NCBI RefSeq assembly: GCF_003334405.1
Contig: NZ_QOWM01000076.1
Direction: 5' to 3' (one strand)
Length of the DNA: 219 nt
DNA from: Escherichia coli
Lineage (GTDB): Bacteria > Pseudomonadota > Gammaproteobacteria > Enterobacterales > Enterobacteriaceae
Shown here: piece after piece, positions 2 to 219 of the stretch
Layout of the letters: each line of letters starts with the position of its first letter
Position numbering within the stretch: position 1 is the first letter of the stretch
Position numbers and translations under genes: made by a program
The notes under the pieces: generated by a model
Told to the model about the DNA's origin: nothing
The model's input: the letters and a program-made list of their open reading frames with translations, nothing else
The model's database searches: none

Positions 2-77
2 TGGCGTCCCCTAGGGGATTCGAACCCCTGTTACCGCCGTGAAAGGGCGGTGTCCTGGGCCTCTAGACGAAGGGGAC
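2..77 (-). tRNA. tRNA-Glu (anticodon UUC), complete 76-nt gene with genomically encoded 3' CCA
   Basis: Reverse complement of 2-77 reads GTCCCCTTCGTCTAGAGGCCCAGGACACCGCCCTTTCACGGCGGTAACAGGGGTTCGAATCCCCTAGGGGACGCCA. It folds as a cloverleaf: 7-bp acceptor stem GTCCCCT/AGGGGAC, anticodon stem CCGCC/GGCGG around loop CUUUCAC (anticodon UUC, encoded as gaa at window 41-43), T-arm GGGG-TTCGAAT-CCCC, and terminal CCA (window 2-4). From memory this matches the E. coli tRNA-Glu found in rrn spacers (gltT/U/V/W family); which copy cannot be told from the sequence. Confidence 0.95.
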
Positions 78-162
78 GTATCAGTCTGCTTCGCAAGACG
101 CCTTGCTTTTCACTTTCTATCAGACAATCTGTGTGAGCACTGCAAAGAACGCTTCTTTAAGG
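78..162 (-). other. 16S-tRNA-Glu internal transcribed spacer (16S-proximal part of ITS1), part of the rrn primary transcript
   Basis: The 85 nt lie between the mature 16S 3' end and the tRNA-Glu 5' end. The transcript-sense sequence is CCTTAAAGAAGCGTTCTTTGCAGTGCTCACACAGATTGTCTGATAGAAAGTGAAAAGCAAGGCGTCTTGCGAAGCAGACTGATAC. Its start (CCTTAAAGAAGCG...GTGCTCACACAGATTGTCTGATAGAAAGTGAAAAGCAAGGCG) matches my recollection of the enterobacterial 16S 3'-flanking spacer. Boundaries are set by the adjacent RNA genes. Confidence 0.85.
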
Positions 163-219
163 TAAGGAGGTGATCCAACCGCAGGTTCCCCTACGGTTAC
201 CTTGTTACGACTTCACCCC
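163..219 (-). rRNA. rrs: 16S ribosomal RNA, 3'-terminal 57 nt (partial; gene continues beyond the window end)
   Basis: Reverse complement of 163-219 is GGGGTGAAGTCGTAACAAGGTAACCGTAGGGGAACCTGCGGTTGGATCACCTCCTTA, the universally conserved 3' terminus of bacterial 16S rRNA. It includes the anti-Shine-Dalgarno CCUCC (window 166-170 as ggagg on the + strand). The mature 3' end ...CCUCCUUA maps to window 163; the exact end may differ by a nucleotide or two between species. Confidence 0.97.

Follow-up and report, generated by a model that had tools for sequence, protein, structure and literature searches.

Genomic context of the window

The stretch of Escherichia coli DNA analysed here (219 nt, referred to as the window) holds the 3' end of a 16S rRNA gene, the spacer that follows it and a tRNA-Glu gene, and corresponds to the minus strand of E. 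coli rrnE, both genes being encoded on that strand (Table 1). Spacer positions are numbered from the mature end of the 16S rRNA (window 163), such that position +n is window 163 - n. Over its whole 219 nt the window matches E. coli rrn operons with 100% identity, and it was found in 5,426 of the 5,426 complete genomes searched. One exact copy lies beside purH, which assigns it to rrnE, and in MG1655 the exact 219 nt occur only in rrsE-gltV, with rrnC differing by 1 base. Among E. coli complete genomes, 10 of 37,973 matches to the window fall on plasmid-labelled records, which represent either rrn fragments on plasmids or mis-assigned replicons.

On the transcribed strand the segment of interest begins immediately after the mature 16S rRNA, with window 162..120 equivalent to spacer positions +1..+43. 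In an Rfam cmscan of the window (E<=10, 4227 families) the spacer at 78-162 gave no credible match, and elsewhere in the window only tRNA, SSU and chance-level matches were returned. Similarly, a repeat search inside the window recovered only the tRNA stems and chance matches; no stem partner appears among these repeats because the partner strand is located outside the window.

Table 1. Features of the 219-nt window and the evidence for each.
Feature	Window position	Strand	Basis
16S rRNA 3' end (rrsE, nt 1486-1542), including helix 45 and the anti-Shine-Dalgarno CCUCC	163..219	-	Rfam RF00177 model positions 1477-1533, 56.9 bits; RefSeq annotation
16S-tRNA spacer, 85 nt	78..162	-	Lies between the Rfam/ARAGORN genes
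tRNA-Glu(UUC), gltV, CCA encoded	2..77	-	ARAGORN; Rfam RF00005, 60.1 bits; annotation
16S trailer, pre-rRNA nt 1543-1589, +1..+47, hLT 3' strand	116..162	-	Pair table; mini pre-16S MFE; trailer span deleted in PMC10250234
Core strand of the 26-bp helix with -131..-106	116..141	-	Pair table; shuffles; RNAalifold consensus helix lies inside
boxC complement CUCACACAGA, pairing with boxC UCUGUGUGGG at -119..-110	128..137	-	Pair table; boxC consensus from PMC10250234
Putative RNase III cut on the trailer, +33 (window 130) / +34 (window 129)	129..130	-	Published 17S ends placed on the pair table
16S-proximal, interrupted part of hLT, +6..+20, with leader -105..-89	143..157	-	Pair table; MFE; cognate versus non-cognate test; truncations in PMC10250234
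Bulged nucleotide +21, unpaired in the model	142	-	Pair table; MFE; K-12 operon comparison
Distal spacer from hLT to tRNA-Glu; weak predicted boxA/boxB pairing; 5-bp local hairpin at 93-106	78..115	-	Duplex prediction versus MFE

Two further sequences at the locus resemble known signals. On the plus strand, window 164-175 reads AAGGAGGTGATC, a perfect Shine-Dalgarno look-alike, which is not a translation signal since it is merely the complement of the anti-Shine-Dalgarno tail of the 16S rRNA. Outside the window, in the spacer between tRNA-Glu and the 23S rRNA gene (positions 2893-2905 of the rrnE locus described below), there is a second boxA-like sequence, TGCTCTTTAAAAA, which is presumably the known spacer antitermination boxA ahead of the 23S leader-trailer helix.

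Pairing of the trailer with the leader of the same operon

A helix between the leader and trailer of pre-16S rRNA was reportedly proposed by Young and Steitz in 1978, and it is among the earliest long-range RNA-RNA interactions described in bacteria. The original prediction, made from the window only, took window 120-162 to be a conserved block flanking the 16S 3' end and likely one strand of the stem processed by RNase III, with its partner in a leader beyond the reach of the window. For the present analysis the leader of the same operon was fetched as part of the rrnE locus (L001, 5.4 kb), in which the 16S rRNA gene occupies positions 1117-2657.

Using RNAduplex we find 26 uninterrupted base pairs between leader -131..-106 and spacer +47..+22 (window 116-141), 24 of them Watson-Crick and two G.U, and beyond this core the predicted helix runs on, past a 1-nt bulge and two small internal loops, to -89/+6 (window 157), which adds about 14 bp and brings the total to about 40 bp. 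The partner strand in the leader, L001 986-1028, lies some 1.7 kb upstream of the trailer. It begins downstream of the leader boxA (TGCTCTTTAACAA, -144..-132, L001 973-985), and its segment -131..-106, TTTATCAGACAATCTGTGTGGGCACT, includes boxC (TCTGTGTGGG at L001 998-1007, just 3' of boxA), whose partner is window 128-137.

This complementarity is far beyond chance. The spacer against the 296-nt leader gives a dG of -80.4 kcal/mol, for a full predicted duplex spanning -168..-89 / +6..+81, compared with -43.0 +/- 3.9 for 500 dinucleotide shuffles (z = -9.6), and window 120-162 alone against the leader gives -52.9, where shuffles average -25.1 +/- 3.0 (z = -9.4). The longest perfect helix, at 26 bp, may be compared with a maximum of 15 bp in the 500 shuffles, and the best of the other 296-nt chunks of the 5.4-kb locus reaches only -55.5. 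The prediction that the segment is a strand of the RNase III stem is thereby supported, in that extended pairing with the leader of the same operon, and not a lack of it, is what was found. The string quoted there in transcript sense, GTGCTCACACAGATTGTCTGATAG, has a single occurrence in the window, at 117-140 of the minus strand. The bounds of 120-162 shift, however: the quoted string itself overruns position 120 by 3 nt, and the strand that pairs is 116-157 (+6..+47).

We also folded a mini pre-16S RNA, in which an A6 linker joins a 5' part, running from approximately the P2 start through the leader and 24 nt into the 16S, to a 3' part made up of the final 13 nt of 16S and the spacer. With local hairpins competing, its minimum free energy (MFE) structure keeps the pairing of -131..-89 with +6..+47 at a mean pair probability of 0.89, and in addition gives the boxB hairpin, hairpins corresponding to hA (short) and hB (long), and an h0 pairing of -11..-3 with 16S nt 7-17. 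This architecture of boxB hairpin, hA, hB and h0 is the one published for the Escherichia clade (PMC10250234). Positions +1..+5 (window 158-162) are unpaired in the models.

The duplex prediction extends further than the folded structure, pairing window 81-115 with the boxA/boxB region, and we do not credit this as part of the element, because in the MFE structure boxB and the distal spacer form hairpins of their own and because truncations here are harmless (PMC10250234); the distal pairing is probably an over-prediction. A separate observation in this region is a palindrome, GCAAGACGCCTTGC then TTTTCACTTT, at window 93-106, which together with a T-run to 116 scores like a terminator on the plus strand, which is not the transcribed one. 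Read in the direction of transcription, it is the 5-bp hairpin (+57..+70) that the MFE structure shows between the helix and tRNA-Glu; this hairpin occurs in the short rrnE/rrnC spacer type, while the rrnB/rrnG spacer differs in the hairpin region (GCAAGGCGTTTACGC) and is 171 nt long as opposed to 85.

The near-perfect complementarity has a consequence for how the plus strand of the window is read. Window 116-141 on that strand, TCTATCAGACAATCTGTGTGAGCACT, resembles an rrn leader with boxC and is identical to the real leader -131..-106 at 24 of 26 positions, and it could be taken for an antitermination leader element. The likeness follows from the complementarity, the two mismatches being the two G.U positions, and the flanking 16S and tRNA-Glu genes are both on the minus strand, no boxA (TGCTCTTTAACAA) precedes the block on the plus strand, and no promoter-like sites were found in the window. 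We give an antitermination leader on the plus strand next to no probability.

Variation among E. coli operons

In the seven rrn operons of MG1655, positions +1..+44 are identical save for +15 (U/A) and +21 (C/A/U), and beyond about +44 the spacers diverge by spacer type. Within the strand that forms the helix the only positions that vary among the seven are window 142 (+21), 148 (+15) and 116-118 (+45..+47). At +45/+46 there is an exchange of AG and GA facing UU, and at +47 of A and G facing U, all of which are wobble-compatible. The U and A variants of +15 pair in alternative registers with -100 or -99, such that the pairing of -99..-96 with +12..+15 is register-ambiguous between paralogs; covariation support for this same pairing was not found in the Escherichia clade (PMC10250234). 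All of the helix-strand differences in K-12 are therefore compatible with pairing.

Near-identity of this kind, which in K-12 extends from the leader through to spacer +44, is what concerted evolution by gene conversion would produce, and the block could in principle be uniform for this reason only, with no function of its own. Such an explanation leaves unaccounted for a 26-40 bp complementarity to a segment 1.7 kb away, which is kept with different flanks in other genera and orders (see below), and it does not explain why disruption of the helix abolishes activity (PMC10250234). It is in effect refuted by the complementarity and the covariation, and we regard it as exceedingly improbable.

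Conservation across genera

A mid-16S pattern scan of contigs from one genome per species returned 120 loci, from which 78 operons with a complete 16S and both flanks gave 68 unique leader/spacer pairs from at least 15 genera. The sample included Enterobacter, Citrobacter, Kluyvera, Pantoea, Erwinia, Mixta, Tatumella, Serratia symbiotica, Buttiauxella, Mangrovibacter, Vibrio, Photodesmus, Moritella and Shewanella, among others. In all 68 unique pairs the longest helix between leader and spacer measures 14-30 bp and always involves the same core. The trailer core GUGYYCACACAGAUU is found in nearly all sampled loci of Enterobacterales, Vibrionaceae and Shewanella, and the view that the block adjoining the 16S end is conserved is upheld both by this recurrence across genera and by the near-identity of the seven operons.

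Whereas the core, AAUCUGUGUGGGCAC/GUGYYCACACAGAUU, is almost invariant, the adjoining positions vary jointly on both strands. In enterics the flank reads CAGAC/GUCUG, in Shewanella frigidimarina CAAGU/ACUUG and in Moritella CAAGC/GCUUG, and in Vibrio there is a shorter UAUCAAUCUG/CAGAUUGAUA. Enterobacterales, Vibrio, Shewanella, Moritella and Photodesmus all retain the complementarity in this way, and the flanks of the helix show compensatory changes.

Applied to 31 representatives of three orders, RNAalifold gives a 20-bp consensus helix inside the 26-bp core; it is confined to the core because MAFFT could not align the divergent flanks in a construct of leader arm, linker and trailer arm. 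Double-sided changes are seen in 4 of the 20 pairs and exchanges between G.U and G-C in 3 more, while the 11 aligned pairs that are invariant are uninformative for or against pairing. In the consensus helix 98.2% of cells are paired, a share that drops to 26-53% on sliding the partners by 1-3 columns, and double-change cells number 42 against 14.7 +/- 3.5 in shuffles, a control that overstates significance because the aligned sequences are related. Over the stretch complementary to boxC the central pairs are invariant in the 31 sequences, and its edge shows only G.U/G-C exchanges.

Since the flanks are unalignable across orders, they were assessed with an alignment-free comparison of cognate and non-cognate strands. 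For 12 lineages the summed cognate flank energy was better than that of 20,000 out of 20,000 permutations, and this held for the proximal and the distal flank each, the 16S-proximal flank being equivalent to window about 141-162 in E. coli.

Some loci depart from the common form. Four loci (Tatumella and Pantoea sp. IMH) appeared to be without the element when a regex anchor was used, a classification we rejected, as boxC is intact in them and the trailer has one additional nt (CACAACAG), which makes a 1-nt bulge rather than a different structure. In loci L021, L029, L031 and L032, from Pantoea sp. IMH and Tatumella morbirosei, CCACAACAGATT replaces CCACACAGATT at approximately +26..+34 of the trailer, with leader boxC intact; the resulting 1-nt bulge adjoins the site where RNase III cuts in E. 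coli and is conserved in several operons of these genomes. Moritella (L019) and Photodesmus (L076) have the trailer sequence CACACAAATT, in which a G to A change gives a C.A mismatch with an unchanged leader C, and in both boxC has GAG for GGG, the same pair of changes being found in two distant lineages.

RNase III sites and published dissection of the helix

A 2-nt 3' overhang is the signature geometry of RNase III. The 17S precursor that this enzyme produces in E. coli has 115 extra nt at its 5' end and 33 at its 3' end (PMC3985665, PMC8708148), and when these published ends are mapped onto the rrnE pairing both fall inside the helix, the trailer cut being at window 130|129. In the model leader -115 pairs with +31, so that a 3' end at +33 would leave a 2-nt 3' overhang (+32, +33), and the complementary cut product, ending at -116, would have an overhang of -117/-116. 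The mapped RNase III sites accordingly fit a processing stem here with exactly the stagger expected of the enzyme, in agreement with the original prediction. On the basis of ends reported for E. coli generally, the rrnE copy would be cut at window 130|129, and +1..+33 (window 162-130) would stay on the 17S until 3' trimming.

In rnc mutants a 17S* species with 133 + 49 extra nt accumulates (review, PMC8708148). Both of its termini fall 2 nt beyond the uninterrupted helix, whose base is at -131:+47, positions that might be expected if the duplex blocks single-strand nucleases. A 2026 preprint reports that a stably assembled rrn antitermination complex leads to more co-transcriptional RNase III processing, and gives as the cause that the 5' end is kept close to the polymerase, which allows the two strands of the helix to meet (10.64898/2026.03.17.712431).

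For cleavage itself, for the essential nature of the helix and for compensatory rescue we draw on the literature. Warner, Bundschuh and Fredrick (NAR 2023) have dissected the helix again by mutagenesis, with the trailer defined as nt 1543-1589, which is window 162-116 (PMC10250234). Removal of either the trailer or the leader strand abolished the activity of an orthogonal ribosome; cutting the trailer back to 1589 or 1584 was harmless, cutting it to 1579 or 1574 reduced activity by about 75%, and cutting it to 1569 or further abolished activity (PMC10250234). The most critical pairs are those of -113..-89 with 1548-1570 (PMC10250234), and thus window 157-135, which takes in the whole of the 16S-proximal segment at 143-157 together with 135-142, as the part of the window reported to matter most for 30S activity. 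Substitutions in boxC or in the trailer facing it lowered activity by a factor of 15 to 100, a defect that compensatory changes rescued, and in a delta-rnc background the effects of helix mutations were similar, from which it follows that the helix contributes to 30S biogenesis in addition to being an RNase III substrate (PMC10250234). Cleavage by RNase III is consequently one use of the helix, and not its sole or most critical role (PMC10250234).

Discussion

The assignment of the locus to rrnE, the statistically significant complementarity, the maintenance of pairing in evolution and the way the published cut sites fit its geometry, all observed here, leave us as good as certain that window 116-162, on the minus strand, is the trailer of E. 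coli rrnE pre-16S rRNA and the 3' strand of its leader-trailer helix. We came across no evidence that contradicts this reading. The element is already known, being the textbook 16S leader-trailer helix (hLT), and it is the same as the E. coli hLT described in PMC10250234, since the organism, nt 1543-1589, the boxC partner and the span of -131..-89 / +6..+47 all match. In the predicted fold the surrounding hA, hB and h0 agree as well, and the cut sites given in the literature fit the helix. The differences are not substantive: most of the published work has been on rrnB and the window represents rrnE, and the rrnE and rrnB trailers differ at +15 (U versus A) and +21 (C versus U), and both forms are compatible with the helix.

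The sequence of events that we envisage is that RNA polymerase would transcribe the trailer about 1.7 kb after the leader, and that the trailer would then pair with leader -131..-89, with boxC inside, to form a helix of about 40 bp bracketing the 16S. RNase III would recognise this duplex and make a staggered double cut, at leader -116|-115 and trailer +33|+34 (window 130|129), freeing the 17S precursor, the 33 trailer nt of which would be trimmed later. Independently of cleavage, the helix would tie the two ends of the nascent 16S together, and published mutagenesis shows it to be needed for active 30S subunits (PMC10250234).

Two known systems bear comparison with this element. The pre-23S leader-trailer helix of the same operon shares its principle, namely long-range pairing of the flanks, cutting by RNase III and a requirement in subunit biogenesis (PMC10250234), but has its own sequence and partner, comprises about 27 bp, leaves helix H1 in the mature 23S and lies outside the window. 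The boxB-boxA-boxC signal of lambda nut and rrn is related in that the leader strand pairing with the window carries boxC directly 3' of boxA; the window, in contrast, has the complement of boxC, on the trailer side, rather than an antitermination signal, and contains no boxA or boxB.

A different interpretation of the conservation is that the block is maintained chiefly for recognition of its sequence, for example by a binding protein or by RNase III (an 'anti-boxC' signal), and that pairing with the leader is secondary. It would account for a core that is more invariant than pairing needs, 11 of 20 pairs being fixed in 31 sequences from three orders, and it finds an echo in the boxC sequence having a role that has been termed 'elusive' (PMC10250234). 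However, 4- or 6-nt substitutions in boxC or the trailer are rescued in E. coli by compensation on the opposite strand, and the authors of that work rank the structure of hLT far above the boxC sequence in importance (PMC10250234). In the flanks, moreover, the exchanges between G.U and G-C and the double changes show selection on pairing. We therefore consider recognition of sequence quite unlikely to be the main reason for conservation, and we retain pairing with the leader as the explanation of the trailer.

For annotation, the analysis places the trailer strand, the boxC complement and the putative RNase III cut exactly within the window, and it indicates that a strand-blind motif search for boxC or the leader would wrongly match the plus strand of the trailer at 116-141. 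It also touches on the question of why the boxC/anti-boxC core is kept as sequence although compensated mutants work. Because conservation of the core is near letter-for-letter on both strands and exceeds what pairing alone demands, while the flanks covary freely, it is conceivable, if unlikely, that the trailer core GUGYYCACACAGAUU, besides boxC, carries a signal in its sequence that escapes reporter assays on compensated mutants. Such a signal might act in RNase III site selection, in rrnTAC-assisted capture of the trailer, or in a fidelity or quality-control step.
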